DNA of 24,364 bases from Parachlamydiaceae bacterium (GCA_030679615.1 JAUXSJ010000304.1:1-24364), one strand, 5' to 3'. Numbered from the stretch's first letter, positions 38 through 21,332 are shown. The notes: generated by a model from the sequence alone, not told the origin. Made by a program: numbers and translations.

Positions 38-154
38 CAGGATAGGCAGGATAAAGAACAAGATATAGGAATGGGGTAAGTAAATTACTTTCGTAGTAAT
101 TTGAAGGCATTAAAAATTTGCTATTCATCATGCTTCTTTATCCTGCCTATCCTG
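38..154. repeat. Palindromic element, family A (caggata-type 9-nt units)
   Basis: caggataggcaggataaagaa (38-58) is the exact reverse complement of ttctttatcctgcctatcctg (134-154). A small internal hairpin aaattact-ttcgt-agtaattt lies in the spacer. Confidence 0.85.
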
Positions 155-258
155 CCAATCTTGTAAATTTTTTTATCTGCAGTTAATAGAGTTAGTGTTT
201 ATATTTTTTTTAAATTTGATGTTACATTTCAAAATTCATACTACAAAAGAGAACAACA

Positions 259-1104
259 ATGCCTTTACAATTTAAAAACAGCCCTCTATCGTACTACAAG
301 CGAATTTTTGCAATTATCCAACTATGCTTATCTTTTAGTTTAATGATTTGGTGCCTATTTCAACCATTTGTGGGGGAATATTTTAATTTAAAAACTAGAA
401 TGTTGCCTTATGAATATGTTTTAGGTGCACAGAAAACAAATGGAAATAATGTTCTTTTGTTTCAAAATATGAATGAAAACGATCGGGAATTAATGAAGAC
501 TGATTATCATAAAATTTTGAAATATTCCCAACGCTCCTTTTTTAAAAAAATTTATGATGGAATTATTTATTTTGCTTTTGAGGTACCTCCATTTGAACTT
601 GCGTGGATCTTTTTTTCTATTGTGATTGCAATACTCATTCTTTTGCAAAAAGAAGGATCTAAAAGCCTTAGTTGGTTATTGCCTATTATTGCAATAGGAT
701 TAGTTGTAGATGATTTTCAATCGGATCAAAAAATCAATTCATCTTCAGATCTAATTCTATTCCCAACTGAAAAACAATTAATAGATGAAGGTTATATTCA
801 AAATTTCCAACATGTCAATTGGATGGAGCAAAAGAATCAATTGACTCAAGGATGGCAAAATTATTTGATAGACAAGTGGAGTTCGCCTCAAGACGAAAAC
901 CGATTAGAAAAAGCTGAATTTAATTTTAATGTAGCAAGATTAAAATTATTTCATGAAGAACCATTTCAAAACTGGATTAAACCTAAAAATGAAAAATTGA
1001 GTTTAATATTGATTGTATTATTTATGTTTTGGAATATTTTATTTGCTTTAGTTATTTTCGATTTCTCGAAAAAAGGAAAAATTCTAACTTTTAGATCTAC
1101 GTAA
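259..1104 (+). CDS. Hypothetical integral membrane protein
   Basis: 281-aa ORF with an N-terminal hydrophobic helix, two central hydrophobic helices and a C-terminal hydrophobic helix; no family recognised. Confidence 0.8.
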   Translation: MPLQFKNSPLSYYKRIFAIIQLCLSFSLMIWCLFQPFVGEYFNLKTRMLPYEYVLGAQKTNGNNVLLFQNMNENDRELMKTDYHKILKYSQRSFFKKIYDGIIYFAFEVPPFELAWIFFSIVIAILILLQKEGSKSLSWLLPIIAIGLVVDDFQSDQKINSSSDLILFPTEKQLIDEGYIQNFQHVNWMEQKNQLTQGWQNYLIDKWSSPQDENRLEKAEFNFNVARLKLFHEEPFQNWIKPKNEKLSLILIVLFMFWNILFALVIFDFSKKGKILTFRST

Positions 1105-1106
1105 CC

Positions 1107-1277
1107 CCAAAAGTCGCTAAATTTTTTATCACAAAGAGCAGAAAGAACACAGAGACACAAAGAGAGGGCATGTTTAATAATGAAACTATATTAAAGAATT
1201 TCATTACTAAACATGCCCTCTCTTTGTGTCTTTGTGTTCTTTCTACTCTTTGTGATAAAAAATTTAGCGACTTTTGG
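1107..1277. repeat. 171-bp near-perfect inverted repeat, family B (acacaaag-type); probably also a bidirectional terminator
   Basis: 79-bp arms (1107-1185 and 1199-1277) with 3 mismatches and a 13-nt loop, between two convergent stop codons (1104 and 1295). Confidence 0.95.
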
Positions 1278-1294
1278 TTTAAACTAAATCCTAC

Positions 1295-2563
1295 TTAAAA
1301 GAATTGAGCGAGTTTAAATGTTCCAATTCCGGCAAAATAACCCACAAAAGCTGCTATACCGATTCTTCGCAAATACCAGAAAAATTGCACGCGCTCAAGC
1401 CCCATAAATGCAATTCCAGCAGCAGAACCCACGACTAAAATACTTCCACCTGTTCCTGCGCAATAGGCTACCAAATTCCAAAAACTTGAATCCATAGGGT
1501 ATGTTGATAAGTCATACATTCCCATTACAGCTGCAACCAGAGGAACATTATCCACAACAGCTGAAGCGAGGCCAATAGCAATCGCTACAAACTCAGAATT
1601 TCCAATGGTATTATCCATCCAATTTGCTAAATTATAAAGAATACCCGCTGTTTGTAATGCATCAATGCACAATAATATTCCTAAAAAGAACAGAACCCCT
1701 GAAACATCAATAGATGTCATGATTGCAGGAACCCGTAAATGTTCTCTTGTTGGTATTCCAGTATGAACAAAGTCAGTAAATAACCACATTAATCCCAATC
1801 CAAACATCATTCCCATGAAAGGAGGAAGTCCTGTATAAATTTTAAAAAGAGGAACTGAGATTAAACAAATCACTCCAAGCCAAAATACGATATTGCCCAT
1901 AGGCTCTTTTTCTTCTTTCACACTGACGGGATTAGATGTAAATTCTCCCTTTAAAAAGATCCCTATCATGGCAAGAAAAGCCACTAAACAAACAAGACTA
2001 GGTAAAAATAAAACTTTTATTATGTTTACTGTTGAAAGTTGACCACCAATCCATAACATCGTCGTTGTTACATCTCCAATCGGTGTCCATGCTCCACCTG
2101 CATTTGCTGCTACAACAACAGTGCCACCTAATAAAAGTCGATCTTCATTAGAATCTAAAAGCTTTCTTAACAAAGTGACCATAATAATCGTCGTTGTTAG
2201 ATTATCTAGAATGGAAGAAAGAAAAAATGAAATGAATCCAATGGTCCATAATAATTTTTTCTTAGATTTTGGCTCAATAGCATTAGAAAGGATCGAAAAC
2301 CCTTTATGCGCATTAATAATTTCAACGATAGTTAAAGCACCTAACAGAAAAAAAACAATTTGGCTAATATTCGCCATATGTTCGCCAAGCCACTCAATAT
2401 TTTTTTCATGAGAAGCTGTTCCACTAGCAAATTGTAAAATCCAACAGACTATGGCCATCAATAGGGCAATGGAGGTTTTATTAATTTTACTTACATGCTC
2501 GATAGCAATAAATAAATAGCCGATCACAAACGTAATGATCATTAATAAATTGAATAAATTCAT
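1295..2563 (-). CDS. nhaD: NhaD-type Na+/H+ antiporter (ion transporter superfamily)
   Basis: 422 aa, highly hydrophobic; motifs FFLSSILDNLTTT, AANAGGAWTPIGDVTT, SAVVDNVPLVAA, GTGGSILVVGSAAG typical of NhaD. Confidence 0.9.
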   Translation of the reverse strand: MNLFNLLMIITFVIGYLFIAIEHVSKINKTSIALLMAIVCWILQFASGTASHEKNIEWLGEHMANISQIVFFLLGALTIVEIINAHKGFSILSNAIEPKSKKKLLWTIGFISFFLSSILDNLTTTIIMVTLLRKLLDSNEDRLLLGGTVVVAANAGGAWTPIGDVTTTMLWIGGQLSTVNIIKVLFLPSLVCLVAFLAMIGIFLKGEFTSNPVSVKEEKEPMGNIVFWLGVICLISVPLFKIYTGLPPFMGMMFGLGLMWLFTDFVHTGIPTREHLRVPAIMTSIDVSGVLFFLGILLCIDALQTAGILYNLANWMDNTIGNSEFVAIAIGLASAVVDNVPLVAAVMGMYDLSTYPMDSSFWNLVAYCAGTGGSILVVGSAAGIAFMGLERVQFFWYLRRIGIAAFVGYFAGIGTFKLAQFF

Positions 2564-2596
2564 GATAGTATAGGGTTCGTTTGTTTAAAAAAAAAT

Positions 2597-2950
2597 CCGG
2601 GAAAATATAAGCCGGATTCTGTTAGCTAATTACTTAGCTCAGTCATCATTCGTCTAGGGTTGCCATTACTAACAACCTCAAGCGACTCTTCTTGAGTCCT
2701 GCGGAGCACAGTATTACTCAAATTCGTTCTTGCTTCGGATAGGGTTTACCGCTATCTGAGTTTTCTCAGATAGTCCAATTCCTTAAATTGGAATTTCACC
2801 CTGTCTGCCAACCCGAAGGTTAGCAGCGGAATACTTTCTGTTGCACTTTCCGTAGCTTTACAGCCCCCAGTATTTCACTGGTATCCTCTCCTATGAAGCC
2901 CGGACTTTCCTCTCCTTAAAAACATAAGCAGCGATGACTCTTTTTCCCGG
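2597..2950 (-). ncRNA. rnpB: RNase P RNA (bacterial type A)
   Basis: Minus strand carries GAGGAAAGTCCGGGC near the 5' end, AAGTGCAACAGAAA, and AACAGAATCCGGCTTAT near the 3' end. Terminal P1 helix ccgggaaaa/ttttcccgg defines the ends. Confidence 0.95.
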
Positions 2951-2988
2951 AAAAAACTTAAAACCTAATTATGGTAAAAAATAGGTTC

Positions 2989-3753
2989 TTAAACTTTTGC
3001 TTTTCGACGACGTTGCTTTGTTGGAACAAGAGCATCCTCTAAGACTTTATTTTCTTGCCAGTAGTGAATGCGTGAACAATGTTCACAAAAAACCAAACGC
3101 TCTCCTCTTCTCACTAGGTTCTCATGCTGTGCAGTTAACATAATATGACAACCACTGCAGCAACGATTTTCTAGTGGAACAACAACTCGATCTCTTTTAT
3201 TGCGCAATAATCTTTCGTAAATTTTAAAGACTTCAACATTCGCATGTGACACTAATTCATCACGTTCTGTTTTAATAGCACGGCCTTCGCTATTAATGAG
3301 TCGAATGTTTTCTTCAATTTCGTTTTCATGAACTTTTGAACCTGCTATAGCAGAATCCAAGTTTTCTTTTAACACTTTTAAATTGTCTTCTTCAACTGTT
3401 AAACGATCGTAAAAATCACTTAATCGCTGTTCTTTCGTTAATCTTTCTCTATCAGCAGTTGAAAGTTCATGAGTAATTGCATTATATTCATCTACTTTTT
3501 TAATCGAACTTTGATGAGCTTCTAATTTTTTAATCTTAGCTAAAACATCTGCATGCTCGCCTTCCATCTGTCGAATGACTTTTTTCATTTCAAAAATGTC
3601 GGATTCTTTTTCATTCACTCGATTTGTCAAAGAGGCTTCATTTGCTTTGATGCTTTCCCTTTCTTTCTCTCTTTGACGTCTGACCTCCAATAATTGAATC
3701 ATTTTCATGTCACATTCTTGGATTTTTAATATCACATTAAGGGCTTCTAACAT
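2989..3753 (-). CDS. CT398/CdsZ-like coiled-coil protein with C-terminal C4 zinc ribbon (DUF164 type)
   Basis: Long coiled coil followed by CSGC...CEHC; length 254 aa and adjacency to rnpB match the chlamydial arrangement. Confidence 0.85.
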   Translation of the reverse strand: MLEALNVILKIQECDMKMIQLLEVRRQREKERESIKANEASLTNRVNEKESDIFEMKKVIRQMEGEHADVLAKIKKLEAHQSSIKKVDEYNAITHELSTADRERLTKEQRLSDFYDRLTVEEDNLKVLKENLDSAIAGSKVHENEIEENIRLINSEGRAIKTERDELVSHANVEVFKIYERLLRNKRDRVVVPLENRCCSGCHIMLTAQHENLVRRGERLVFCEHCSRIHYWQENKVLEDALVPTKQRRRKAKV

Positions 3754-4060
3754 AATTTATTCCTTAAGGTAAATGAGATAATTATAATAGTGTATGCCAT
3801 CATAACGAATGAGGAAAAAAAAGAAAAGAAATCAATTGATTGAATTTTTTTTTTGATCAGGCAAGCAATCAATACAATTTAAAAACAAACTGGATTTTTG
3901 ATATTTTATTTCATTTTCATTTCAACATATTATGGTCAAGAACAGATTATTATTCATTAGATACTAATAAGATTTTTAAAATCAATAAACACTTGTTTTT
4001 TTAAATTTTTGTAATATTATTTCTGATATAAAAAAACAAACATTAAATAAAGAAGGTTTT

Positions 4061-4600
4061 ATGATTAGTAATAATTACAACGTTTTCATTTCTGATCAAA
4101 CAATTGAACTAATTGAAGAAAAAATCAATTGTTCTATTTCTTTTAAAAAAACTTCATGGAAATGGCATTATTCTCTTATTCAAAAGGGTAATAATAGTGA
4201 AGTAGTAGGCGATATTGTAAAAAAAAGTGACAATCAATTCGTAAAAATCATTGAACTGCATAAAAAAATAAAAGATCAATCAACACTAACAAATGATTTT
4301 GATGAAGCACAAATAATGAAATTTTTAAATAAATTTTGTCACTTAAAATATAGGCAATTTTTATTCCAATCTAAAATAGAAATTTTTCAAAACGACTGTT
4401 ACCCAGTGATCAAGAATATTCTCGAAGAAAACACAAATAAAAAAGTTATGCTAGTTTCAAAAATAGCGGAATTTTTCAAAAATAAACTTGAAGGAGGATT
4501 TTCACGATATTTTCAAGAAAATTTATCAAATTTCGATCAAGATTGTTTTTCTATAGTAAAAGAAATAAATAAAGATTTATTTTTTAATCAAAACCAATAA
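4061..4600 (+). CDS. Hypothetical protein (orphan, Lys/Asn-rich)
   Basis: 179-aa ORF in an AT-rich region with AGAAGG upstream; no motif recognised. Confidence 0.65.
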   Translation: MISNNYNVFISDQTIELIEEKINCSISFKKTSWKWHYSLIQKGNNSEVVGDIVKKSDNQFVKIIELHKKIKDQSTLTNDFDEAQIMKFLNKFCHLKYRQFLFQSKIEIFQNDCYPVIKNILEENTNKKVMLVSKIAEFFKNKLEGGFSRYFQENLSNFDQDCFSIVKEINKDLFFNQNQ

Positions 4601-4618
4601 AAAAATGTAATTAAATAT

Positions 4619-4667
4619 GGAGTGCGCGTGACTTGTCACCGCTTTCATAGCTTCGACTTGTCGAAGC
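4619..4667 (+). repeat. REP-like unit (GGAG-tagged hairpin) plus a second hairpin
   Basis: ggagt-gcg(c)gtga-cttg-tcaccgc-ttt followed by gcttcga-cttg-tcgaagc; same GGAGTGCG...CGCTTT frame as the units at 11033 and 11151. Confidence 0.7.
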
Positions 4668-4924
4668 GTTGCGTAGTGGCAAAGAATTGTGCTATCTGCA
4701 ACGACATTTTTAGAGAAGCCATTTCTCAGAATCGAAAGATCGCAAGGTTAACTCGGTTTAACCTGATGACCTAAGCCTGCTCATTTTGTTTTTTCTTTTT
4801 TAAGAATTATAAAGTCTTTTTCTTGATTTAAACTTTTTTGTTGACATTCATTTTGATACCTGGGAAAAAAATACTGGACTCATAAATTAGTCATATCAAC
4901 ACATTTATGAAAAGGTAGTAAGCC

Positions 4925-5377
4925 ATGCTTACAAAAAAAGATTCAACTAAAGAAACAAAAGTTAAACTCAGCAAAGTAAACGCTCTAAACAAAAATGCTG
5001 AAGAAAATTCATATTGCTGTTCACAATCGTCATTATCTATTCCATCCCCCTCCAAGCCCATAAAACCTAACAATTCAATTCCTTCAAAAAATCAAGATGC
5101 TCAAGAAAAAAAATCTTCTTACAAAACTCGTCTGACTATTAAGTATGACATCGGCTATCAAAATAAATTTTTTATTCGCGGCAAAGGAGCAAATTTAAGT
5201 TGGGATAAAGGACAAGAGTTCACTAATGTCAAACCTGATGAGTGGATTTGGGAAACAGAGATTCCTTTCAATCAATGCGAATTTAAAGTATTAATTAACG
5301 ATGAAATTTATGAAATTGGTGAAAATCATTTTTTAAATTGCGGATCCTCGGTTGTCTATACTCCTCATTTTAATTAG
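4925..5377 (+). CDS. Hypothetical protein with low-complexity N-terminus and CBM20-like C-terminal domain
   Basis: C-terminal ~80 aa pattern FIRGKGANLSWDKG...WIWET...EFKVLIND resembles starch-binding CBM20 folds (recognition by eye only). Confidence 0.7.
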   Translation: MLTKKDSTKETKVKLSKVNALNKNAEENSYCCSQSSLSIPSPSKPIKPNNSIPSKNQDAQEKKSSYKTRLTIKYDIGYQNKFFIRGKGANLSWDKGQEFTNVKPDEWIWETEIPFNQCEFKVLINDEIYEIGENHFLNCGSSVVYTPHFN

Positions 5378-5407
5378 CTTTAACGATGGATAAAATAACA
5401 AGGTAAT

Positions 5408-5525
5408 ATAAATTTTTCTTGTTCTATCGTTATATCGTTATATCGTTTCCATCGTTAATTTGCTTTAAGACTCATGTCAGCTAAAAGTAAAATTAACGAT
5501 GGAAACGATAGAACGATATAACGAT
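5408..5525. repeat. Palindromic element, family C copy 1 (atcgtt-type 8-nt units)
   Basis: Arms 5426-5461 and 5490-5525 (36 bp, 1 mismatch); loop gctttaagactcatgtcagctaaaagta. Confidence 0.9.
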
Positions 5526-5659
5526 GGATTTAGGAAACGGACCTTCCTTTCAATCAATGCGAATTTAAAATGTTGATTAACGATGAAATTTATGAAATAG
5601 GTGAAAATCAATTTTTAAATTAATGATCTTCTGTTGCTTACACTCCTCATTTTAATTAG
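5525..5659 (+). pseudogene. Degenerate tandem copy of the 3' end of the 4925..5377 gene
   Basis: 5525-5659 matches 5243-5377 at an offset of 282 bp, with substitutions and an in-frame TAA in place of the Cys codon. Confidence 0.85.
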
Positions 5660-5695
5660 CTTTAACGATGGATAAAACAATAAGATAATATAAAC

Positions 5696-5808
5696 TTTTC
5701 TTGTTCTATCGTTCTATCGTTTCCATCGTTAACTTTACTTTTAGCTGACACGAGTCTTAAAGCAATTAACGATGGAAATGATATAACGATAGAACAAGAA
5801 AAATTTAT
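5696..5808. repeat. Palindromic element, family C copy 2 (loop in inverted orientation)
   Basis: Arms 5696-5732 and 5766-5802 (2 mismatches); loop ctttacttttagctgacacgagtcttaaagcaa is nearly the reverse complement of the copy 1 loop. Confidence 0.9.
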
Positions 5809-5814
5809 TTTAAG

Positions 5815-5857
5815 AATCCTGTTTATCCTTCCTATCCTTTTAATCCTGTAATTTTTT
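5815..5857. repeat. Solo right arm of family A
   Basis: aatcctgtttatccttcctatccttttaatcctgtaatttttt resembles the right arm at 137-174; no clear left arm nearby. Confidence 0.65.
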
Positions 5858-5977
5858 ATACGACATTTGTTAACTTCAATCTCATCAACTAAACAATCTT
5901 GCATAAAAACGATCATTTCAGACACAATAAATCTCCAGAAAGCTTCAATTTTTACAAGTTAATCAGGGATTTTTTGA

Positions 5978-7456
5978 ATGACATCGAGACTAAAAAAATA
6001 TTTATCAAAACATGCCTCTTCACCTCTCAATCCTGCAGTTGTTGCTTACATCGCATCTCTCGATCACCTGGCTTCCGTAGCTCCTGAAGTGGAAAAAAGC
6101 ATTGTTCAAGAATTAAATGATGAAAGATCTCATTTAAAACTAATCGCTTCAGAGAATTTTTCATCTTTGGCTGTTCAACTCGCCATGGGTAATTTACTAA
6201 CAGATAAATATGCTGAAGGCTATCCGGGTCATCGCTTTTATGCAGGTTGTAATAATGTTGATGCGATTGAAAGTCTTGCTCAGCAAGAACTGATTGAATT
6301 GTTTAAATGCGAACATGCATATGTCCAACCACATTCTGGTGCAGATGCCAACCTAGTTGCATTATGGGCTATACTTTTTCATAAAATCCAAGCTCCTGCT
6401 ATTGAGAAATTAGGCAAAAAAACTTTAGATGAATTATCCCCTGAAGAATATGAAGAGGTACGTCAACTTTTAGTTAATCAAAAACTCATGGGGATGTCGT
6501 TAAATTCAGGTGGACATCTCACTCATGGTTACAGACATAATATTTCTTCGAAAATCCTTAAAGCTGTTCATTATGATGTAAATCCAAAAACAGAATTAAT
6601 TGACTACGATCAATTATCAGATCAAGTTAAAAAGGAAAAGCCCACCATTCTTATGGCAGGGTATTCTGCTCACCCAAGAAAAATCAATTTTGCTAAAATG
6701 AGAGAAATTGCCGATCAAGTGGGAGCTGTTTTATTTGTTGACATGGCCCATTTCGCAGGTCTTGTTGCAGGTGGAGTGTTTGAAGGAGAATTCAATCCGA
6801 TTCCTTATGCTGATATCGTCTCTTCAACTACCCATAAGACCTTAAGAGGACCAAGAGGTGGTATCATTTTATGCAAAAAAGAATATGCAGATGCTGTCAA
6901 TAAAGGATGTCCTTTAGTTTTAGGAGGTCCGCTTCCACATGTGATGGCTGCAAAAGCTGTTGCCTTTAAAGAAGCTAATACTCAAGAATTTAAAGATTAC
7001 GCTAAAAAAATTGTTGAAAATGCACACTATTTAGCTGAACGCTTTATCCAAAAAGGTGTCCGTTTAGTTACAGGTGGAACAGAAAATCATTTATTAATTG
7101 TGGATTTAACACAATTTGGATTAACAGGTCGGATTGCAGAGTCAGTTCTTCGATCAGCTCATATCACTGTTAATCGAAATGCCATCCCATTTGACCAACA
7201 AGGTCCATGGTATACATCGGGAATTAGATTAGGAACAGCTGCTTTAACAACCTTAGGAATGGGAAAAGAAGAGATGTATGAAATCGCTGATGTGATTATT
7301 ACTATTCTTATAAACACAAAGCCAGCTATGATTGAAAAAACAGGACAATTGAGTAAGGCAAATGGAATCACTGATCCTTTAGTGTTAGAAGAAGCAAAGA
7401 AACGGATCGCTCAACTTTTAAATCGATATCCGCTCTATCCTGAAATTGAAATTTAA
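5978..7456 (+). CDS. glyA: Serine hydroxymethyltransferase
   Basis: LIASEN, KYAEGYPG, YVQPHSGADAN, GGHLTHG, DMAHFAGLVA, STTHKTLRGPRGG (PLP lysine), TSGIRLGT; long chlamydial-type form. Confidence 0.98.
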   Translation: MTSRLKKYLSKHASSPLNPAVVAYIASLDHLASVAPEVEKSIVQELNDERSHLKLIASENFSSLAVQLAMGNLLTDKYAEGYPGHRFYAGCNNVDAIESLAQQELIELFKCEHAYVQPHSGADANLVALWAILFHKIQAPAIEKLGKKTLDELSPEEYEEVRQLLVNQKLMGMSLNSGGHLTHGYRHNISSKILKAVHYDVNPKTELIDYDQLSDQVKKEKPTILMAGYSAHPRKINFAKMREIADQVGAVLFVDMAHFAGLVAGGVFEGEFNPIPYADIVSSTTHKTLRGPRGGIILCKKEYADAVNKGCPLVLGGPLPHVMAAKAVAFKEANTQEFKDYAKKIVENAHYLAERFIQKGVRLVTGGTENHLLIVDLTQFGLTGRIAESVLRSAHITVNRNAIPFDQQGPWYTSGIRLGTAALTTLGMGKEEMYEIADVIITILINTKPAMIEKTGQLSKANGITDPLVLEEAKKRIAQLLNRYPLYPEIEI

Positions 7457-8991: not shown

Positions 8992-10212
8992 ATGTGTGCA
9001 AAAATAAAACAAGAAGCTCAAAATCCCTTAATTTTACGTTGTCATCGATTAATGGAAGCCTTTGCTAAATCTGATGATGAGAGAGATTTTTATATTGATA
9101 GACAAGAGGGATTTCTTGTTTATGTTGATTTAGATAAACCTCAGGAAGAATTAGACACATTATATCTGGAACTTGAACAAAATGCCGACCGCTATTGTGG
9201 AATTCCAAAACTGTCTTTTTATGAAACAAAAAAAATCATGGAAGGATTTGTTAATGAGAAAGTTTATGACATTGATACAAAAGAAAAATTACTCGATATC
9301 ATTCAGTCTAAAGAAGCGAGAGAAAATTTTTTAGAATTTATCTATGATCATCATTCCGAACAGGAAAAATGGCAACAGTTTTATCAAGAGCGTTCAAGAA
9401 TTCGCATTATTGAATGGCTTAGACAAAACCATTTTCATTTTGTTTTTGAAGAAGATCTAGATCTTCCAAAACAACTGATTGAGAAATTAAAACAATCCCT
9501 TTTTCAGCCCAAAGTGGGAAAAGACATTCAAAATGCTCGTAAGTCACTTGCAATGAAAGCAAAAACTTATTACTCAAACGAAGCTTTAAATCCTCGTCCA
9601 AAACGTGGACGACCACCTAAACAAGCTGTAAAACAGGAATTTGAACCACAAGTAACAGTTGATATTTACACGACTGTCACTCCATCTGTTCGACCATTTC
9701 TCTTTTCTCCAGATCTCAATGTTTCATCTCCATTTTCTATCTTCTCTTCAAAATTTGATTCTGAAGAAGAAGTTGTATCTAATCGCCGTCAACTTGATCC
9801 CGAAGGAGATGGTCCCTTACAACAAAAATTAGCTGCAATCCGCTCTTTCTCTTCAAAATGGACAGAAAGTACATCGAAAGTTGAAAATAATCCTTATGCA
9901 ATCGATACGAATTTTGATGATGATGACGATGATGACGATGATGATGATGATGCCTTTTCTGGATCAAAAAAATCTCAAAAGAAAAGCGCTCCTTCTAAAT
10001 CGAAACCAGCGCCTACCAGCGCTAAAGCTAAAGTCACTGCAACCAAAGTTAAGAAACCATCTTCTGCAACAACAAAAAGTGCATTAAAAAAGCCAGCTCC
10101 AGCCGCAAAGAAGAGTGCAAAGGTTGAAAAACCAAAAGTGAAAAGAATTATGCCTAAGGTTCCTCCAGTTAAAGGAACAGATGTTAAGCCAAAAAAATTG
10201 ATAAAAAAATAG
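8992..10212 (+). CDS. UPF0158 / CT429-like protein with AT-hook, poly-Asp tract and Lys/Ala-rich tail
   Basis: N-terminal LMEAFAKSDDERDFYIDRQEG and position after dapF match chlamydial CT429; PRPKRGRPPK at 9592-9621; 12 Asp codons at 9916-9951. Confidence 0.85.
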   Translation: MCAKIKQEAQNPLILRCHRLMEAFAKSDDERDFYIDRQEGFLVYVDLDKPQEELDTLYLELEQNADRYCGIPKLSFYETKKIMEGFVNEKVYDIDTKEKLLDIIQSKEARENFLEFIYDHHSEQEKWQQFYQERSRIRIIEWLRQNHFHFVFEEDLDLPKQLIEKLKQSLFQPKVGKDIQNARKSLAMKAKTYYSNEALNPRPKRGRPPKQAVKQEFEPQVTVDIYTTVTPSVRPFLFSPDLNVSSPFSIFSSKFDSEEEVVSNRRQLDPEGDGPLQQKLAAIRSFSSKWTESTSKVENNPYAIDTNFDDDDDDDDDDDDAFSGSKKSQKKSAPSKSKPAPTSAKAKVTATKVKKPSSATTKSALKKPAPAAKKSAKVEKPKVKRIMPKVPPVKGTDVKPKKLIKK

Positions 10213-10232: not shown

Positions 10233-10880
10233 ATGAATCAATCTTCTTTCACCTCTTCCTTCATGATTTATATTCTTTTTTTGTGTTTAAATTTTCAGCT
10301 GAACATTGTTTGCGCTGAGAAAATTGATAATAAAGTTTATGATATCGCTGTCTTTGGGAGCCCAACAAGTGGTCCATTAATTGAAGGTGCCATAGGTGCA
10401 ATTCAAAAAGGATATCGACATCGTTTCTATTGTCATTCATCTGGACCGAATCCAGGCTTTATTGGAGCTCAAACTAGTACCAAACTTTCTTCAATTAAAG
10501 AGCAACCTGGGGTCTTCCCAGCACCTCTAATGGGTTCTGATTCATTACAATTTACTTTTGCATTAACAGCGTCACACGATCCTGTTATTCCAGTGATTGT
10601 AAAACCGGACGGAACCATCCTAAAAGGTTATCCGATGACTTATGAACATGCTCCTCAAGTTCTGTCTATTCCCTATCCAGCCCAAACTGGTATTTACAAT
10701 TTTTTCGTTCTTAATCAAAATATCAACTTCGAAAAAAATTCTTCTCCTTCAGAAAATCCTTGGATCAATGTCAACGTGATTACAAATCATCAATCAAGAA
10801 AAAGTCAAAATTTTTCCATTAAAACCTTTAATGCACAGGTCGAATCTCCAGAATTTATTTGTGCCGAATATATTTATTAA
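10233..10880 (+). CDS. Hypothetical exported protein
   Basis: 215 aa, strong GGAGG ribosome-binding site, hydrophobic N-terminal segment ending VCA (signal-peptide-like). Confidence 0.75.
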   Translation: MNQSSFTSSFMIYILFLCLNFQLNIVCAEKIDNKVYDIAVFGSPTSGPLIEGAIGAIQKGYRHRFYCHSSGPNPGFIGAQTSTKLSSIKEQPGVFPAPLMGSDSLQFTFALTASHDPVIPVIVKPDGTILKGYPMTYEHAPQVLSIPYPAQTGIYNFFVLNQNINFEKNSSPSENPWINVNVITNHQSRKSQNFSIKTFNAQVESPEFICAEYIY

Positions 10881-10924
10881 AAGACTAAAGAGACATTAGG
10901 GACTATAGGGACTTAAGGGACATC
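10880..10924 (+). repeat. Five 9-nt tandem units (ARRGAC-NNN), solo arm of family D
   Basis: aaagactaa/agagacatt/agggactat/agggactta/agggacatc, beginning on the last base of the stop codon; similar units at 21089-21115. Confidence 0.75.
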
Positions 10925-10928
10925 AGAA

Positions 10929-11281
10929 GCAACATCTCTACTTAAGCAACAATGGAGTAAAAATCAACCACAGGGATCAAAAAATCGACTTTAGGTTTTT
11001 TACTCAATCGCCATGTCTTCATGATACCTTTTGGAGTGCGAAGGCCCTGCCTTCGCTTTTTTCAAGAGAGAATAATTATGATGCAATGTCATTATCCGGC
11101 TTAATCAATTCAATTTATAAAAGTGCATATGTGGATATCCGAATCATAAAAAAGCGAAGGCAGGGCCTTCGCACTCCAAAAGGTATCATGAAGTCATGGC
11201 GATTGAATAAAAAAGCCTAAAGTCGACTCTGATCTTAGTAGTTAATTTTTACGCCATTGTTACTTAAGTTGATGATGTTGC
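10929..11281. repeat. 353-bp REPIN-like inverted doublet of GGAG-tagged REP units
   Basis: Inner arms 11004-11062 and 11148-11206 (59 bp, 1 mismatch), each containing gcgaagg-ccctg-ccttcgc. Imperfect outer arms extend to 10929 and 11281; 85-nt spacer. Confidence 0.9.
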
Positions 11282-14743: not shown

Positions 14744-14747
14744 TCTT

Positions 14748-15434
14748 ATGCGATGCATTTTCATTGAAACCTCTACTGAGCGCGGAGTCGTTGGTTTAAT
14801 TCAAGATCAAACGATTGTCTATTCAAAATACCTCCCCTTTGGAATGACTCAATCTCAACAATTGATACCTTTTCTTCATGAACTCATTCAATCACTTGAC
14901 TTATCAAACCAACCCATCGATGTCATTGGACTTGGAATTGGACCAGGATCTTATACAGGTATTAGAGTTGGAGTTGCTGCTGGTCAATCATTAGCTTATG
15001 CATGGAACCTTCCCATGATTGGAGTTTCCAGTTTATATGGATTTATACCATCTCAACCAAATGTAAAGTTTGCAGCTTTAATAGATGCGAGGATTGGGGG
15101 AGTATATGTAATAAAAGGAACAAGTCATTCCAATCATCAAATAAGTTACCAATCAACCCCAGAGCTTTTTAGTTTAGAAAAAGTAGGGGAAGTTCTTAAA
15201 GAAACAACCCATTTTGTAACGCCAAATTCCAAATCGTTAAAATCAAAATTTAATCTTCACTATCCTGAGAATAATTGGGTATGGGAAGAACAAAATCCTT
15301 CACTCATTTCCTTGAATTCTGTTTTATCAAATGCATGGAATAATAATGAGCAAATTAGACCTCCTACACATTTAAAACTGCTTTATTTAAGAGAAACAGA
15401 AGCGGAACGTTCATTAAAAAAATTATCTTCCTAA
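14748..15434 (+). CDS. tsaB: tRNA threonylcarbamoyladenosine biosynthesis protein TsaB (YeaZ)
   Basis: IFIETST, GIGPGSYTGIRVGVAAGQSLA, LIDARIGGVY; upstream of rpsU-dnaJ as in chlamydiae. First ATG at 14748. Confidence 0.92.
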   Translation: MRCIFIETSTERGVVGLIQDQTIVYSKYLPFGMTQSQQLIPFLHELIQSLDLSNQPIDVIGLGIGPGSYTGIRVGVAAGQSLAYAWNLPMIGVSSLYGFIPSQPNVKFAALIDARIGGVYVIKGTSHSNHQISYQSTPELFSLEKVGEVLKETTHFVTPNSKSLKSKFNLHYPENNWVWEEQNPSLISLNSVLSNAWNNNEQIRPPTHLKLLYLRETEAERSLKKLSS

Positions 15435-15475
15435 TTATTTCTATTGAAAAAAATTTATCCTCTTAATTCTTTCTA

Positions 15476-15504
15476 TTGAAAAGAAGTATTCCCTCATGTA
15501 AACT
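15476..15504 (+). promoter_or_regulatory. Putative sigma66/sigma70 promoter for rpsU
   Basis: TTGAAA-N17-TAAACT, about 90 nt upstream of the rpsU start; pattern match only. Confidence 0.45.
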
Positions 15505-15595
15505 TGATTTATCTGTATTAAAGAAAATGGGTCTAACTCTTTTAATGTAAGAAAAGATCAGATCTTAACATTTAAGAACATCAGGATTAAATGAC

Positions 15596-15775
15596 ATGTC
15601 ACTTGTAAAAGTTCGTATTGGTGATTCAATTGATAAAGCTCTTCGTGCTTTAAAAAAACGTTTGGATAAAGAAGGTGTAATGAAGTCAGTAAAAGCGCAT
15701 CGTTTTTATTGCAAACCCTCTATAAAAAAACGAGCAAAGTCAAAAGCTGCTTTAAAATACAAAAAACAGCGCTAG
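15596..15775 (+). CDS. rpsU: 30S ribosomal protein S21 (not in ORF track)
   Basis: Manual translation [59 protein letters not shown] (59 aa) has the bS21 pattern. Confidence 0.95.
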
Positions 15776-15874
15776 AATATTGTTGTTCATCTGACTACAC
15801 ATCCATATTTTGGATAACGCAAAAAGAAATGATTTAAGTTACTGATTGTTAATCCAATTATCTATTTTTTCTTC

Positions 15875-15949
15875 AGCTTGTTTTCTTTTTTTTGGCTTCT
15901 GGATGATGAAAAAATTCATCTGAGAACAAAAAATAAAAGAAACCAAGCT
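15875..15949. terminator. Imperfect long hairpin between rpsU and dnaJ (terminator or regulatory structure)
   Basis: agcttgttttctttt...ggatga pairs imperfectly with tcatctgagaac...aaccaagct. Confidence 0.4.
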
Positions 15950-16052
15950 TTAGAAAAATTGGATTTTTTAGTTAATTATCAAAATTAAATTAGCTTTTAG
16001 ATCAAATTTTTTTTGAAATCATTTAAATCTTTAATAAAAAATGTAAGTTTCT

Positions 16053-17210
16053 ATGACTGATTATTACGAAATTTTAGAAGTTCCTCGAAATGCAACAGCC
16101 GAAGAAATTAAAAAAGGCTATCGCAAAAAAGCTCTTCAGTTTCATCCTGATAAAAATCCAGGGGATGCAAAAGCTGAAAAACGTTTTAAAGAAGTTTCAG
16201 AAGCGTATGAAGTCTTAAGTGATGAGAAAAAAAGACAAATTTACGATCGCTACGGAAAAGAAGCCTTACAAGGTGGAGCCGGTGGAGGTCCTGGAATGCA
16301 AGGATTTTCTTCAATGGACGAAGCTCTTCGTACATTTATGGGTGCTTTCGGCATGGGCGGCGGCGGTGGTGAAACAATTTTTGATTTCTTTGGAGGCGGA
16401 GACTTTCGCGGTCAAGAAAGTAGTCGAGGTGCTCGACAAGGCGCAAGCAAACGGGTCAATATCACGATATCCTTTGAAGAAGCAGCGAGAGGTACAGACA
16501 AAGAACTTGCCGTTAGTAACTATGTTGCTTGTTCGACTTGTAATGGAAAAGGTTCTAGCAACCCGAAATCAGTAAAAACTTGTTCACAATGTAATGGAAG
16601 AGGTCAAGTCTTTGAACAAAGAGGCTTCTTTAACATGACAACAGGATGCCCAACCTGTCATGGTGAAGGAAAAGTTATTACGGATCCTTGCAAAAATTGC
16701 CGTGGTCAAGGTGTTGTTAAGGAAAAGCAACATGTTAAAGTGCATATTCCTGCTGGTGTAGATAGCGGAATGCGTCTTAAAATGAATGGACATGGAGATG
16801 CTGGACAGAATGGCGGTCCTGCTGGGGATTTGTATGTCTTCATCACAGTAGAATCGCATGAATTATTTGAAAGAGAAGGCAATGATATTCTCTTAGATGT
16901 ACCTGTTAGCTTTACTGAAGCTGCTTTAGGAACTAAAAAAGAGGTCCCTTCTTTATTTAATCATACCTGCCGGATTACTATCCCAGAAGGAACTCAAAAT
17001 GGAAAAATATTTAGAGTGACTGGAGAAGGTTTTCCAAATGTTCATGGTCATGGTCGAGGTGATTTGTTAATTAGCATTTTTGTTGAAACCCCAACAGGTC
17101 TAAATGAAAGTCAAAAAGAATTATTACGTCAATTTGGTGAAACCGAAGGAATTAATAATTTACCTAAACGCAAAGGCTTTTTAGATAAAATTAAAGAATT
17201 CTTTAATTAA
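16053..17210 (+). CDS. dnaJ: Chaperone DnaJ
   Basis: J-domain with HPD, G/F-rich linker, four CxxCxGxG repeats, C-terminal domain. Confidence 0.98.
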
Positions 17211-17309
17211 TGCAACGCTTTATATGAATGATGTTAATAAATAAGTTTATGTTAACTAATTACTAAATTACTTAATATTAGATTTCTTTCAAAACTTAAA
17301 GGGGATTAA

Positions 17310-17448
17310 ATACAAAGACACGAAGACTCTAAGGCACGAAGAAGTTTAAAGGATGGGCTTTATGATTCGAACACCATCTTTTACGTAAGGGACTCCAAAA
17401 TAATCTTGTCTTTGCTCTTTGTGTCTTCGTACCTTTGTGTCTTTATGT
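17310..17448. repeat. Degenerate family B palindrome
   Basis: acaaagacacgaagac...gcacgaag (17312-17341) faces ctttgtgtcttcgtacctttgtgtctt (17417-17443); same ACACRAAG units as 1107-1277. Confidence 0.7.
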
Positions 17449-17545
17449 TGCATTTTTCTACACTCATTGACTCAACTCCAAATTGTGAATTCTAAGATGA
17501 AATCGCAAACCAAACCTTTTCTTCGATTCCTATATCGATCACTTA

Positions 17546-17713
17546 TATAGTCAATTAAATTACATTTGATAATTTTTGACCGCGTCAAAGCCTCGAGATT
17601 AAAAAATTTTTTCATGTGCAATATTAATTTAATATTGTACATGAAAAAATTTATTCAATCGCGAGGCTTTCACGCTGGTCAAAATTTTATCAACTGTGGT
17701 TTAATCGACTATA
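17546..17713. mobile_element. 168-bp palindromic MITE-like element, family E copy 1
   Basis: Full-length imperfect palindrome with TATA at both ends; second copy 1115 bp downstream. Confidence 0.8.
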
Positions 17714-18508
17714 TTTAAATATTTCTCCCAAATTCTTTAAATGCATCTTAAATTCATCAAGAAGATTATTTAAATTATCAATATTTGATTGATGCCTATT
17801 AATAGAATTACCTAAATGTGAATTTTCTAATTTTCTTTCTTCAGCTAGTAATAATTTCTCGGTTATGCTAATGAGTTGTGTCATGTCTTTCTTATTTTTT
17901 TCATAAGATTTTAAATTTCTATAAACATTAAGAAATTTTTCTCCTATATTAATAAAATGATCAATATCTCTCTGCTGAATTTCACTTAGTGGCTTTTTAC
18001 TTATTATTGTATTAAAAGATGATATTTTAGGCTTTAAACTTTCGAGTTTATCACTCGCTTGAGAATCAAAATTTCTCCAGCCGTCTAACGTTTTTAAATT
18101 TTGTTGATGTCTGTTTTTAGATTTTGGTTGTACAGAATCAGTATAAGCTTGTCGTTCTCTCTCAAATAATTTTTCAACCCCTTTTGAAATTATTTTTTTA
18201 TCATCTCCTGTGATCATTTCCAGAGTATTTTTATTATCATCATCAGAATTAACTTTTTGTTTTTCAATTTTATTTATGGTTTTTTCAAATTTTTTTAATT
18301 CCTTAATTGAATTATCTACATCGTTTCTTCCTATTTTTGTTATTTTTTTTTCACTAATCGCTTCAAAATGATCAACTGTTTTTTTTATTTCTTTCAACTG
18401 ATCCAAAACTTTATTTTCATGTATCTTTTCTTTCAAACTTGGAATTTTATTTTCTGGTTGAAGAATATAAACTTGATTTTGCCCCCTATTAACTTGACTA
18501 CTATCCAT
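17690..18508 (-). CDS. Hypothetical Lys-rich coiled-coil protein (orphan)
   Basis: 272-aa ORF, AGAAGGAG upstream; the last 7 codons and stop lie inside family E copy 1. Confidence 0.78.
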   Translation of the reverse strand: MDSSQVNRGQNQVYILQPENKIPSLKEKIHENKVLDQLKEIKKTVDHFEAISEKKITKIGRNDVDNSIKELKKFEKTINKIEKQKVNSDDDNKNTLEMITGDDKKIISKGVEKLFERERQAYTDSVQPKSKNRHQQNLKTLDGWRNFDSQASDKLESLKPKISSFNTIISKKPLSEIQQRDIDHFINIGEKFLNVYRNLKSYEKNKKDMTQLISITEKLLLAEERKLENSHLGNSINRHQSNIDNLNNLLDEFKMHLKNLGEIFKYSRLNHS

Positions 18509-18660
18509 AATTTTCTCCTTCTAAAACATTTCGAAAAGGAAATAATTTTGAAACTGAATATAATTTTATTAAACAACTAAAAAATTAAGATTATATTTAA
18601 TTTTAATAAGGAAAATGCAAATCATTAGTTTACAATGTGAAGTTTCGTGAAGATTTTAGA

Positions 18661-18829
18661 TATAATCGATTAAATTACATTTGATAATTTTTGACCGCGT
18701 CAAAGCCTCGAGATTGAAAAATTTTTTCATGTGCATTATTGATTTAATATTGCATATGAAAAAATTTATTCAATTGCGAGAGCTTTCACGCTGGTCAAAA
18801 TTTTATCAACTGTGATTAAATCAACTATA
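18661..18829. mobile_element. 169-bp palindromic MITE-like element, family E copy 2
   Basis: Direct repeat of 17546-17713; manual alignment gives 11 substitutions and 1 indel. Confidence 0.8.
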
Positions 18830-18959
18830 ATTAAATAATTTTGAATTAATGTGATTAAATCGTTAATTAAATTGTTTAGTTAATTAAAAATTTAATCAGT
18901 ACGAATCGGGTTGTATTGTTTTTTTTGTAACCGTTCAGTCGGTTTAATCATTGAGTTCA

Positions 18960-19028
18960 GGCATGCGATTTGCAATTTGAGATAATGAATTTTAGAAAAA
19001 GTTTTATGCAAATCACAAATCACAAGCC
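18960..19028. repeat. Degenerate hairpin with 7-nt units (caaatca)
   Basis: ggcatgcgatttgcaatttg vs caaatcacaaatcacaagcc, 16/20 complementary. Confidence 0.5.
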
Positions 19029-19055
19029 AGAGATCCACACGGGATAGTCATAAAC

Positions 19056-19111
19056 TTAAGAAAATCTCTTACGCCACTAGCCGTGGCTAATGGCGTAAGA
19101 GATTTTCTTAA
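19056..19111. terminator. GC-cored hairpin downstream of the FGE-domain gene (terminator and/or REP-like unit)
   Basis: ttaagaaaatctcttacgcca / tggcgtaagagattttcttaa, 21 bp perfect, enclosing tagcc-gt-ggcta; 17 nt from the stop at 19129. Confidence 0.7.
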
Positions 19112-19128
19112 TTCGAAGTAAGAGACTA

Positions 19129-21006
19129 TTATTTAGCCACGCGAAAGCCAGTAAAGACATCACAATATCCTGGCGGTAAAGCTAGCCTTTCAGAAACACG
19201 CACTCCATCAGCGGTACTATCATAACATCCACCTTTCACAATTTTAAAATTGTTTGGTTCGCTTTTTTCATCCCAATCAGTTACCCACTCCCACACATTA
19301 CCACTCATATCATAAGCGCCGACAGGACTCTTGGCATCGTTTGTTTTTGTGATCGAACGTTCTTGTAGTGTCACGGGCAGCTGGTTTACACCATTATAAA
19401 ACCCTACAGGATTGGTTAAAACTAGAGAACTATCTCTTATCCTCGAAGGGTCACGATAATTAGCCCAAGTGCGATCTATTTCATTTTTTCCAAAGCCATA
19501 TTTATAACGCGTTCCAATAGATCCATCCTTTGAAATTGTCATTCCCGCTGCTTTTTCCCATTCATATTCAGAAAGTAGACGGCCACCATGACTTTTACAA
19601 TAAGCTGAAGCACCAAACCAAGTCACATTAATAACAGGATACAGTTCTTTATCATTTAACACTTCGATCAATACTTGATTATTTGTAGGTAAAGGTTTAA
19701 TCGTTAATTGAGATAAAGGATTTGCTTCTGTTGTTTTGCAAATTAATTGTCCCTCACGATCAAAAATATGACCAGGTTTAGAAATATCTATTTGAAAATT
19801 TTTATTTACTATTTCTTGTGTTACCCACGCAGCAAATTCTTGATTTGTTACAGGATAAACCCCTATAGAGAATTCAGGAATATTTATTTGTTTTGCTGGT
19901 CTTTCATTTTGATGACTATCTGTAAAAGGATCGCCGACGATGGCAACCCCCCCGGGAACATTAACAAACTGATGGGATGGCAAATTCTTTTTTAACGAAA
20001 TTTCTTTATGAACATGAATATCTTGATCTTCTGTTGACAATGACGAAAACAACTCAAGGGTACGAGGTAGACTATTATGTACTGTTACATATGTCGATTT
20101 TGTTAAATTCGATTTATCATCTAAGCGTTGATAAGTTAAAAGATAATGTCCTTCTGGAAGAAATAATGTGTTGTTATTTTGAGTAAAAATTTCATCAATG
20201 ATAATTTTTTTGTTCTTGGGAGATGTCAAAACAACATGGGTTGGGCCTAAAGTTTTTAAAACCAAGGGAGCTGAAATAGGCTGTGAAGCTTTGGAGGTTG
20301 TTGAAGTTGTTTGAGTTGTCTCTTCTTTATTTAATGATTGATCAGATTCTACTGGTTTTTCCTCAATCATTTCATTTTTGATTTCATCGTCAATGATTTC
20401 TTCTTTTTTCTTTTCTAGTTTATTGTTGGGAAGGTTTTCAACAAAATCTGTTTGAATCGTTTGTTTATTAATTAAATTTTTATTCGCAAAGTTTTCATTT
20501 GAATCAGCAATTTCACTCTTTTCTTTGAAAAGTGGTTTTATTTCAGGTTTTTTTAATAGAGATAAAACTTGGTAAATATCCTTTTTAGGAATATTTGGGA
20601 ATATTTTTGAATGAATCACTTGATCGATTTTTACAGTTTCACCCGGACGAATTATAACGGTTTTTGGAACAACTTCTTCAAAAAATCCATCATGATTTGG
20701 AACTATAAATTCAATATAGTAAATACCTGGAGTTAAAGAAGGTATTGCTACCGTTGTTGAAAAACCTGATTGATGACTATCCACAAATTGATTGTTTTTA
20801 GGGTATAACTCATGCTCATCTTTTTCATTGATCAGCCAAAAACGGATTCTATCCAAACGTTCTTTTGCTTGATTTGTTTCGAAAGTCACAATCAGTGTGC
20901 CTGTTTCATTTGAAAATGCGCTTCCAAAGATTATTGAAAACAAGAATAACAAACTTAAGCAATGCAATTTCGGGTGTTTTACAAACATTCTTTTTAATTC
21001 CGTCAA
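19129..21006 (-). CDS. Exported SUMF1/FGE-sulfatase-domain protein
   Basis: N-terminal signal-like hydrophobic stretch; C-terminal YPVTNQEF, PVINVTWFGASAYC, LLSEYEWEKAA, DMSGNVWEW, KGG...GFRV motifs. Confidence 0.88.
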   Translation of the reverse strand: MTELKRMFVKHPKLHCLSLLFLFSIIFGSAFSNETGTLIVTFETNQAKERLDRIRFWLINEKDEHELYPKNNQFVDSHQSGFSTTVAIPSLTPGIYYIEFIVPNHDGFFEEVVPKTVIIRPGETVKIDQVIHSKIFPNIPKKDIYQVLSLLKKPEIKPLFKEKSEIADSNENFANKNLINKQTIQTDFVENLPNNKLEKKKEEIIDDEIKNEMIEEKPVESDQSLNKEETTQTTSTTSKASQPISAPLVLKTLGPTHVVLTSPKNKKIIIDEIFTQNNNTLFLPEGHYLLTYQRLDDKSNLTKSTYVTVHNSLPRTLELFSSLSTEDQDIHVHKEISLKKNLPSHQFVNVPGGVAIVGDPFTDSHQNERPAKQINIPEFSIGVYPVTNQEFAAWVTQEIVNKNFQIDISKPGHIFDREGQLICKTTEANPLSQLTIKPLPTNNQVLIEVLNDKELYPVINVTWFGASAYCKSHGGRLLSEYEWEKAAGMTISKDGSIGTRYKYGFGKNEIDRTWANYRDPSRIRDSSLVLTNPVGFYNGVNQLPVTLQERSITKTNDAKSPVGAYDMSGNVWEWVTDWDEKSEPNNFKIVKGGCYDSTADGVRVSERLALPPGYCDVFTGFRVAK

Positions 21007-21064
21007 ATGAGTTTAAATGCAGCATAAAGATTGCCAATATTTTTTGGAACGATTTGGTTGTCTG

Positions 21065-21332
21065 ATCTCAAATGTGTTTAAATTTTTGAGGGACGTCAGA
21101 GACAGCAGAGACAATAAGGCAATAGAAATTAACGATAACCTTTTCTTGTTATATCGTTATATCGTTATATCGTTTCCATCGTTAACTTGCTTCAAGACTC
21201 ATTTCAACTAAAAGTAAAATTTGCAATGAAAACAATATAGCAATATAACGATATAGTCCTATTTTTTGTCTAAGACGACCTTGCTATCTCAGCTGTCTCT
21301 GTCGTTCCTTAAAATTTATGCACATTCGAGGT
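21065..21332. repeat. Nested palindromes: family C copy 3 inside a family D hairpin
   Basis: Outer imperfect arms 21065-21106 and 21292-21332 (…cagagacagc/gctgtctctg…); inner atcgtt-type element ~21129-21255 with the same loop as copy 1. Confidence 0.8.

Follow-up and report, generated by a model that had tools for sequence, protein, structure and literature searches.

Three probable kinds of non-autonomous palindromic repeat in a groundwater Parachlamydiaceae genome

Why should 24,364 nucleotides of chlamydial DNA hold about 14 long palindromic elements, lying between genes or at gene ends and in several cases abutting a stop codon? The stretch in question is JAUXSJ010000304.1:1-24364 of a Parachlamydiaceae bacterium (GCA_030679615.1); it was analyzed at its full length and is called the window here. 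It is the entire contig C338 of a 2.26-Mb assembly in 368 contigs (32.9% G+C, 87% complete, no contig below 2.5 kb) that derives from a groundwater metagenome, and its gene content (glyA-clpP-dapF-UPF0158, mcsA/mcsB, dnaJ, and RNase P RNA) is chlamydial. In what follows, contigs of this assembly carry a C number, other chlamydial genomes a G number, and loci in them an L number. An original prediction, made from the sequence alone, took the palindromes for hairpins mobilized in trans that might form one gene-acquisition system, analogous to but distinct from integron attC sites and from repetitive extragenic palindromic (REP) elements with their REP-associated tyrosine transposases (RAYTs).

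We think it probable that the window is a sample of a genome colonized by three co-resident kinds of non-autonomous palindromic repeats: a GGAG-headed REP-RAYT system, which is a known system in a new guise; a class of palindromes linked to a nuclease gene, which is probably undescribed; and an orphan family of miniature inverted-repeat transposable elements (MITEs). The observation that started this work is confirmed and its interpretation is partly supported: the elements are not a single gene-acquisition system distinct from REP/RAYT, and part of them, families F and G, simply are REP/RAYT elements.

Eight multicopy families between genes

An inverted-repeat scan combined with direct reading of the sequence recovered every element listed beforehand, about 14 in the window. 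BLAST against the whole assembly places them in eight families, all multicopy, with 12 to 140 loci each and at least 97% of them intergenic; the merged loci number 69 (A), 22 (B), 28 (C), 21 (D), 26 (E), 140 (F), 41 (G), and 12 (H). None of the families is therefore single copy, as ordinary terminators had been expected to be, and the description of the elements as non-autonomous, multicopy hairpin repeats holds. In total, 354 of 359 loci are intergenic by our crude gene calls, which make 82% of the assembly coding, in line with the original placement between genes or at gene ends. Convergent gaps hold 82 loci and divergent gaps 20, although the total length of the two gap types is similar. 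The five abutments on stop codons first noticed in the window are correct by open reading frame (ORF) coordinates, and across the genome a stop codon is no more than 10 nt away from 31 of 196 loci, compared with the 16.2 expected for uniform placement of each locus in its own gap. This roughly twofold excess is real but modest. A generic exact-word palindrome scan found only 31 loci and was not used, given that its reversed control was invalid (reversal keeps inverted complementarity).

The repeats take up much of the noncoding DNA of this environmental chlamydia and are the cause of its shattered assembly. Contigs of the assembly and of the source run end at repeats, those of the source run at each one, and the assembler depth in that run is 201 over the F region versus about 6.6 in unique sequence.

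Families F and G are probably served by tyrosine transposases

Which enzyme might spread the GGAG-tagged units? A search of the genome with Pfam Y1_Tnp gave nine matches, and ORFs on C24 and C152 score 86.8 and 106.9 bits, respectively, on NF047646 (REP-associated tyrosine transposase), for which the curated cut-off is 80 bits. The C24 ORF matches the Escherichia coli TnpA-REP structure (PDB 4ER8), and the RAYT sequence has the HYH and YxxxNPV motifs. This RAYT gene is bracketed by two inverted F units, TGGAGTGCGAAGGCCCTGCCTTCGCTTTTTT, which are 31 nt long and 100% identical and lie 17 nt upstream and 3 nt downstream of the gene. Their form, which is also that of family G, is a GGAGT head followed by a GC-rich hairpin and a T-run. 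The head GGAGTGCG occurs 169 times in the genome (about 10 expected), 156 times between genes, and is mostly followed by one of two hairpin types, F and G. Of neighboring heads less than 400 nt apart, 37 pairs are in inverted and 1 is in direct orientation, an arrangement that matches the REPIN doublet; the modal spacing, about 140 nt, is also that of the window.

The link between head and enzyme extends beyond this genome. RAYT homologues of the C24 protein are present in 21 of 200 sampled Chlamydiales genomes, usually one per genome, and the flanks of about nine fetched RAYT loci (almost every locus that had a strong flanking inverted repeat) are headed by GGAGTGCG or a one-base variant of it, with a hairpin that differs by genome. 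In G062 the RAYT gene (L155) is flanked by the two-hairpin G module of the window, and matches to this module at about 90% identity are found in G025, G003, G011, and G027. The conserved head reads GGAG(TGCG), versus the GTAG or CGTC of the described superfamilies.

By their sequence and genomic company, families F and G are REP/REPIN elements (REPINs being paired REP units), that is, a known system with a new head in a new host group. We posit that the units would be recognized as single-stranded hairpins and spread by the HUH/tyrosine transposases encoded on C24 and C152. The two F units of the window have the look of canonical stem-plus-T-run terminators, each facing an incoming gene, and terminator-like calls fall on both of them (11038-11056 on the plus strand and 11172-11154 on the minus strand) and on a hairpin at 19062-19105; going by this form, F and G units might also act as intrinsic terminators.

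The genome has other Y1 genes. A decayed RAYT gene with one in-frame TAG (C126:10490-11110) is flanked by inverted GGAATGCGAAAGTCCTCTTTCGC units, and this pair looks like a dying REP-RAYT system beside an active-looking one. Five further IS200-type Y1 genes lie at C212:1-900 (74 bits on NF033573) and on C141, C33, C251, and C229; at least those on C212 and C229 have on their flanks GC-rich hairpin repeats of other kinds that lack the GGAG head, and thus the genome has more REP-like families than the window shows.

Tandem-word palindromes are dispersed repeats

Families A, B, C, D, and H have another architecture, in which the arms are inverted arrays of 7-9-nt words around a spacer: CAGGATANN in A, CACAGAGN or CACAAAGN in B, ATCGTTAT in C, GGGACNNNN in D, and CAAATCA in H. 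The inverted 8-9-nt word arrays proposed as the common design of A to D are thus borne out, and the H element at 18948-19031 shares the design. Copies differ in their number of words, and at six contig ends a D array continues past the edge. The arms of A and C close with A/T runs, A and a long C subfamily have terminal inverted repeats and no coding capacity, and the long C copies have TTAA or TTA at both ends. The only possible target duplication at C is this TTA/TTAA, which is indistinguishable from the palindromic ends themselves.

Are these dispersed elements or hairpins that arose where they stand? Four observations taken together indicate that the tandem-word palindromes are dispersed repeats rather than local hairpins. 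First, C loops are conserved among copies with unrelated flanks. Second, copies nest: in the window a C copy lies in the loop of a D palindrome, and in G177 a B-like palindrome lies in the loop of an A-type palindrome. Third, the gap from ORF 4925-5377 to glyA is 600 nt here and holds two C copies, whereas the orthologous gap in four close relatives (G004, G009, G010, and G007) is 55-219 nt and repeat-free and, in G009, holds a plain terminator. Fourth, arms are 90-93% complementary within a copy and 76-83% identical between copies, a difference that indicates either a pairing constraint or arm-to-arm conversion. The nearest genomes compared are other genera, with about 70% identity in conserved genes, and so filled and empty sites can be compared only across genera; the comparison called for at the outset succeeded at this C-bearing gap and yielded no close-distance pair for any family.

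That the palindromes, those of family F included, are instead non-mobile host structures, terminators or protein-binding arrays expanded in place by slippage, is a reading to which we give little credence. Its attractions are the terminator form of the F units, the A/T runs that end A and C arms, a variation in word number like that of variable-number tandem repeats, and the strong enrichment in convergent gaps. It must contend with loops and spacers that are conserved in dozens of copies with unrelated flanks, with nested copies, with orthologous gaps that hold a simple terminator in place of the elements, and with dedicated genes flanked by the same repeats.

Family C shows two further forms of rearrangement. 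The loop is flipped between the two window copies (5414-5537 and 5686-5812), and a gene 3' end plus C-type arms has been tandemly duplicated at two unrelated loci, window 5243-5808 and C212:5420-5780, the duplication on C212 spanning 5579-5761. These sequences suggest that C palindromes promote local duplication and loop inversion.

A GxxExxY nuclease gene lies between word arms

Can an enzyme be assigned to the tandem-word palindromes? On C212, C arms lie on both sides of a 142-aa ORF (C212:4993-5421), whose scores are 142 bits on TIGR04256 (GxxExxY) and 138 bits on PF13366 (PDDEXK_3), a family listed as "function unknown" (PMC3424549). This is the intact GxxExxY gene of the genome; two decayed ones, on C72 and C170, each lie exactly between the arms of an A-type palindrome, and 3 of 3 TIGR04256 genes thus stand between A-type or C-type word arrays. 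Gene-less loci that share words with gene-carrying copies number 69 for the A type (C170, C72) and 28 for the C type (C212).

The same arrangement recurs in other chlamydiae. A GxxExxY gene is present in 72 of 200 Chlamydiales genomes and in 0 of 14 control genomes. Inverted repeats of at least 30 bits flank 15 of the 24 genes with full flanks in other chlamydiae, compared with 0 of 46 control intervals shifted within the same loci. Among 30 fetched loci, inverted arms composed of a T-run, ACCACAGAG, and CACAGAG words commonly stand on either side of the gene, no farther away than about 150 nt; these TTTTT-ACCACAGAG-CACAGAG arms of other chlamydiae have the design of window family B and nearly the same sequence. 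Across 29 sequences of the protein, the G, E, and Y for which it is named do not vary, nor do the residues of a D...ExK triad. No solved structure matches it by sequence, and an AlphaFold2 model (pLDDT 86) comes closest to Cas4 SSO0001 and lambda exonuclease.

There is also a case in which arms and gene appear to have traveled together. In G187, a complete GxxExxY cassette is lodged in an IS630 insertion sequence (IS) of 1,764 bp (L139:34-1797), on the stretch that runs from the left end of the IS to the 3' end of its transposase gene; near-identical copies of this IS number at least 21. The cassette, arms plus gene, measures 440 bp; a related IS630 in G089 (L170:1313-2467), whose host belongs to the same genus, is about 1,160 bp long and lacks it. 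This difference shows that arms plus gene can insert as one unit. The copy number of the GxxExxY gene in G187 was considered as proof of the cassette's own mobility and rejected, the gene being a passenger of the 1,764-bp IS630.

Sequence comparison has shown the association of gene and arms and the conservation of the catalytic residues. Based on these, we consider that A, B, and C are probably gene-less relatives of GxxExxY cassettes and that D and H, by their design, are likely to be so as well. In the model that we put forward, a full cassette would consist of inverted 7-9-nt word arrays enclosing one GxxExxY PD-(D/E)XK nuclease gene; the nuclease would recognize the word arrays, or the hairpin or cruciform that they form, and may promote the copying or maintenance of the palindromes, as a RAYT serves REPINs. 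We tentatively suggest, with confidence that stops somewhat short of even, that families A to D and H together with GxxExxY form a distinct, undescribed class of palindromic elements, propagated or maintained by a Cas4/lambda-exonuclease-like PD-(D/E)XK nuclease and coexisting with GGAG-headed REP-RAYT. On the same tentative footing, the class would use a minimal nuclease in place of an HUH or DDE transposase and would have hundreds of gene-less copies. A search of the literature on chlamydial MITEs and on GxxExxY/PDDEXK_3 returned no description of these elements or of the link between GxxExxY and the arms. If the link is correct, it gives the widespread PF13366 family a candidate DNA substrate and a testable role.

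The placing of the enzyme outside the window is supported. Candidates of two of the types named in advance are found elsewhere in the genome, RAYT on C24 and C152 and GxxExxY on C212, C72, and C170, the RAYT gene of C24 being flanked by F units and the GxxExxY genes by A or C words; a search of the assembly for a DDE_3 gene came back empty.

Several points weigh against the three-part account and against the nuclease class in particular. The identical GxxExxY copies of G187 are explained by hitchhiking on IS630 and not by cassette activity; there is a single intact GxxExxY gene in an 87%-complete assembly, and the C-type words at this gene, on C212, are opposite in polarity to those of the C palindromes; and no gene-carrying copy of D or H was found. 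The association of gene and arms could also mean that palindrome loops are a preferred insertion site for the gene or for other elements, and loop insertions do occur. Family E has no candidate enzyme, no DDE_3 gene having been found in this incomplete assembly. For all families, there is no filled/empty pair at close evolutionary distance (the nearest genomes being those at about 70% identity) and no unambiguous target-site duplication was seen. The source run consists of assembler contigs only, which break at every repeat and are uninformative for polymorphism, and mobility is therefore deduced rather than witnessed.

An insertion sequence that targets family A

An IS4-family element at C236:2590-4183 (NF033592, 220 bits) has A-type words at both ends and a conserved end, CATACGCATCAGGCTAA; homologues are found at L047 (G166), L046 (G177), and L045 (G062). 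In G166 and G177, an 11-bp direct duplication of one A word (CCTGCATATCC, CCTGTTAATCC) lies outside the conserved end, as expected for insertion into CAGGATA-type words. The element was considered as a parent of family A and rejected, since a duplicated word beyond the CATACGCATCAGGCTAA end means that the IS inserts into A palindromes.

Family E and the possibility of ordinary MITEs

Family E differs from all of the above. It is a 168-bp end-to-end palindrome with termini TATAGTCGATTAAAT, of which there are 44 in the genome, and it has terminal inverted repeats, TA-rich ends, and no coding capacity. Spacers are conserved between E copies with unrelated flanks. The same 15-nt ends bound elements of 75-170 bp with differing interiors in other chlamydial families (G027, G130, and G095). 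The possible target duplication is TA only and, as at C, is indistinguishable from the palindromic ends. From these features, E is a MITE-like foldback element with conserved 15-nt termini, for which no known parent was found, and the combination of shared ends and differing interiors looks like a MITE family served by a conserved transposase.

Could all of the families be of this sort, that is, ordinary MITEs derived by deletion from DDE insertion sequences (IS630, IS5, or IS4 types) and mobilized in trans by an IS now missing from a fragmented assembly? We regard this as unlikely, although it survives better than the other alternatives. Family E, with its conserved termini and TA-rich ends, is what it predicts, as is the long C subfamily with TTAA or TTA on both sides; IS630 and IS4 elements are present in Chlamydiales; and collapsed IS copies could well be missing from an assembly that is 87% complete and has no contig below 2.5 kb. 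Set against this, no IS with matching ends was found, and no arm pair in this genome, incomplete as its assembly is, encloses a transposase; the assembly lacks a DDE_3 gene; the only IS that touches family A, the IS4-family element, does not share its ends and uses A as a target, with an 11-bp duplication; and the gene that does recur between arms is GxxExxY.

Do the palindromes capture genes?

The original description placed the elements mostly beside orphan or accessory genes. This was not confirmed. Of 40 genomes of the family, 32 have ORF 259-1104; six of eight fetched relatives show synteny of ORF 4925-5377 with glyA; the order Zn-ribbon gene, ORF 4925-5377, glyA, clpP, dapF, UPF0158 is kept in relatives; and dnaJ and mcsA are core genes. 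The C elements have brought no gene with them into the space that separates two conserved syntenic genes. Among the flanked genes tested, only two are lineage specific. ORF 4061-4600, found in 0 of 40 genomes searched, sits in a gap that spans 158-599 nt in relatives; it has a REP unit at its 3' end only, and BLAST against the assembly found no multicopy repeat on its left. ORF 17690-18508, a 272-aa ORF on the minus strand in DNA of 25-28% G+C, is bracketed by a pair of E copies in direct orientation, the only cassette-like case and a unique one in the genome, and 5.8 billion proteins include no homologue of it.

Nor is there a cassette organization. A gene usually has one palindrome family on its left and another on its right; neither cassette arrays, an attC-like core, a shared orientation, nor matched pairs elsewhere were found; five Phage_integrase matches in the genome are on contigs other than the window; and a screen of multicopy ORFs for a transposase returned only NEL/LRR effectors, ATPases, and similar genes, the repeated ORFs being effector-type paralogues. 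The sole gene that recurs between such arms is GxxExxY. Since there are no arrays, common orientation, or matched pairs, and the flanked genes are mixed in their conservation, gene capture by the palindromes is unlikely. We would say instead that all three kinds accumulate in 3' intergenic space, often at the stop codon, without delivering the neighboring genes, likely because insertions are tolerated there and the AT-rich stop regions offer targets.

The idea that the palindromes mark the borders of mobile gene cassettes, in the manner of integron attC sites, is thus the least credible of the alternatives and in our judgment highly improbable, its two suggestive loci being ORF 4061-4600, which lacks a repeat on one side, and ORF 17690-18508, a single case that cannot carry the hypothesis. 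An attractive but unsupported notion of a new gene-capture system is thereby removed.

Features of the window

The palindromic elements of the window are given in Table 1.

Table 1. Palindromic elements of the window, with positions counted from its first nucleotide
Position	Strand	Element	Details
1-200	.	Family A tandem-word palindrome	CAGGATA-type 9-mers; core arms 30-58/134-162; truncated by contig start
1094-1290	.	Family B tandem-word palindrome	T-run + ATCACAAAG + CACAGAG/CACAAAG words; 92-nt arms 1094-1185/1199-1290, 13-nt loop, 90% complementary; begins within final codons of ORF 259-1104
4598-4686	+	Family G REP module	Starts at stop codon of ORF 4061-4600; tag GGAGTGCG at 4619-4626; hairpin GCGCGTGAC-TT-GTCACCGC; second hairpin 4650-4667
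5380-5852	.	Family C palindrome pair	5414-5537 and 5686-5812, ATCGTTAT 8-mers; within tandem duplication of ORF 4925-5377 3' end; extra A-type arm beside the pair at 5818-5852
10880-10927	+	Solo family D arm	Four GGGAC-type 9-mers; starts in stop codon of ORF 10233-10880
10929-11281	.	Family F REPIN-like palindrome, 353 bp	Fills gap between two convergent genes; convergent REP units GGAGTGCGAAGGCCCTGCCTTCGC + T-run at 11033-11056 (+) and 11154-11177 (-)
17300-17445	.	Decayed family B palindrome	CACGAAGA/ACAAAGA words; downstream of dnaJ
17541-17723	+	Family E copy 1	168-bp end-to-end palindrome, termini TATAGTCGATTAAAT...ATTTAATCGACTATA; contains stop codon of ORF 17690-18508
18659-18845	+	Family E copy 2	Orientation as copy 1; upstream of orphan ORF 17690-18508
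18948-19031	+	Family H half-element	CAAATCA 7-mer words; palindromic elsewhere, e.g., on C18
19056-19111	.	Near-perfect hairpin	27-nt arms; behind FGE-sulfatase gene; low copy, terminator-like
21081-21317	.	Family D palindrome	AGAGACNNN/GGGACNNNN 9-mers; upstream of mcsA; family C copy 21135-21255 nested in its loop

Some other observations concern the window and its assembly. A seemingly empty 425-bp gap from the CitMHS transporter gene to the Zn-ribbon gene is filled by a bacterial class A RNase P RNA (2593-2950, minus strand, 245 bits), which is the sole Rfam match in the window; no Rfam family matches any of the palindromes. The UPF0158/CT429 homologue has 12 Asp codons in a row (9916-9951), and 37-nt matches of window 9911-9952 in many chlamydial genomes (95-97% identical, nonsyntenic) were set aside as Asp-codon simple sequence and not a mobile element. 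Por_Secre_tail (type IX secretion sorting) domains, unusual for Chlamydiae, occur in contig-end ORFs at C268:1-1252 and C330:1-626 and may reflect slight contamination of the bin (stated contamination, 1.9%).

Comparison with known systems

How do these elements compare with what has been described? Integron attC sites are likewise imperfect palindromes at gene ends that fold as single strands. The differences here are that there are no cassette arrays, shared orientation, attC core, or adjacent integrase with attI, and that the flanked genes include conserved syntenic core genes.

IS-derived MITEs, such as Correia elements or IS630-derived MITEs, are a second point of comparison. The elements resemble them in their small size, in having terminal inverted repeats but no ORF, in their many copies between genes, and in their nesting; defined, conserved termini and TA/TTAA flanks are a further likeness in E and the long C subfamily. 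In contrast, the searches brought up no parent IS sharing the ends of these elements, duplications are ambiguous given the palindromic ends, and the arms are tandem words in variable number.

Insertion sequences that target REP elements (IS1397, ISKpn1, and IS110-type elements) offer a parallel for the IS4-family element of C236 and its G166 and G177 homologues, which lie in A-type words with an 11-bp duplication. Here, however, the transposase is of the IS4 (DDE) type, and the target is a tandem-word palindrome and not a REP.

Proteobacteria have REP/REPIN-RAYT systems (Nunvar 2010; Bertels and Rainey 2011 [PMC3116915]; TnpA-REP structure 4ER8), whose GTAG- and CGTC-tagged repeats have been surveyed, with a mention of GTAG repeats in the Planctomycetes-Verrucomicrobia-Chlamydiae superphylum (PMC3733652). 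Like these repeats, the units of families F and G are short GC-rich hairpins that have a conserved 5' head, number in the hundreds outside genes, form inverted doublets, and come with a low-copy HUH/Y1 gene between two inverted units. They differ in that the head is GGAG(TGCG) and not GTAG or CGTC, that the host is an AT-rich obligate intracellular lineage, and that at least two intact and two decayed RAYTs each have their own hairpin type; families A to E, moreover, have no HUH partner, and the arms of A to D and H are arrays of 7-9-nt words and not a single hairpin. By analogy of organization, the tandem-word palindromes may stand to GxxExxY as REPINs stand to RAYT. The range of REP-RAYT is thus extended to the obligate intracellular Chlamydiales, where it has a new GGAG head, a conserved sequence open to biochemical testing.

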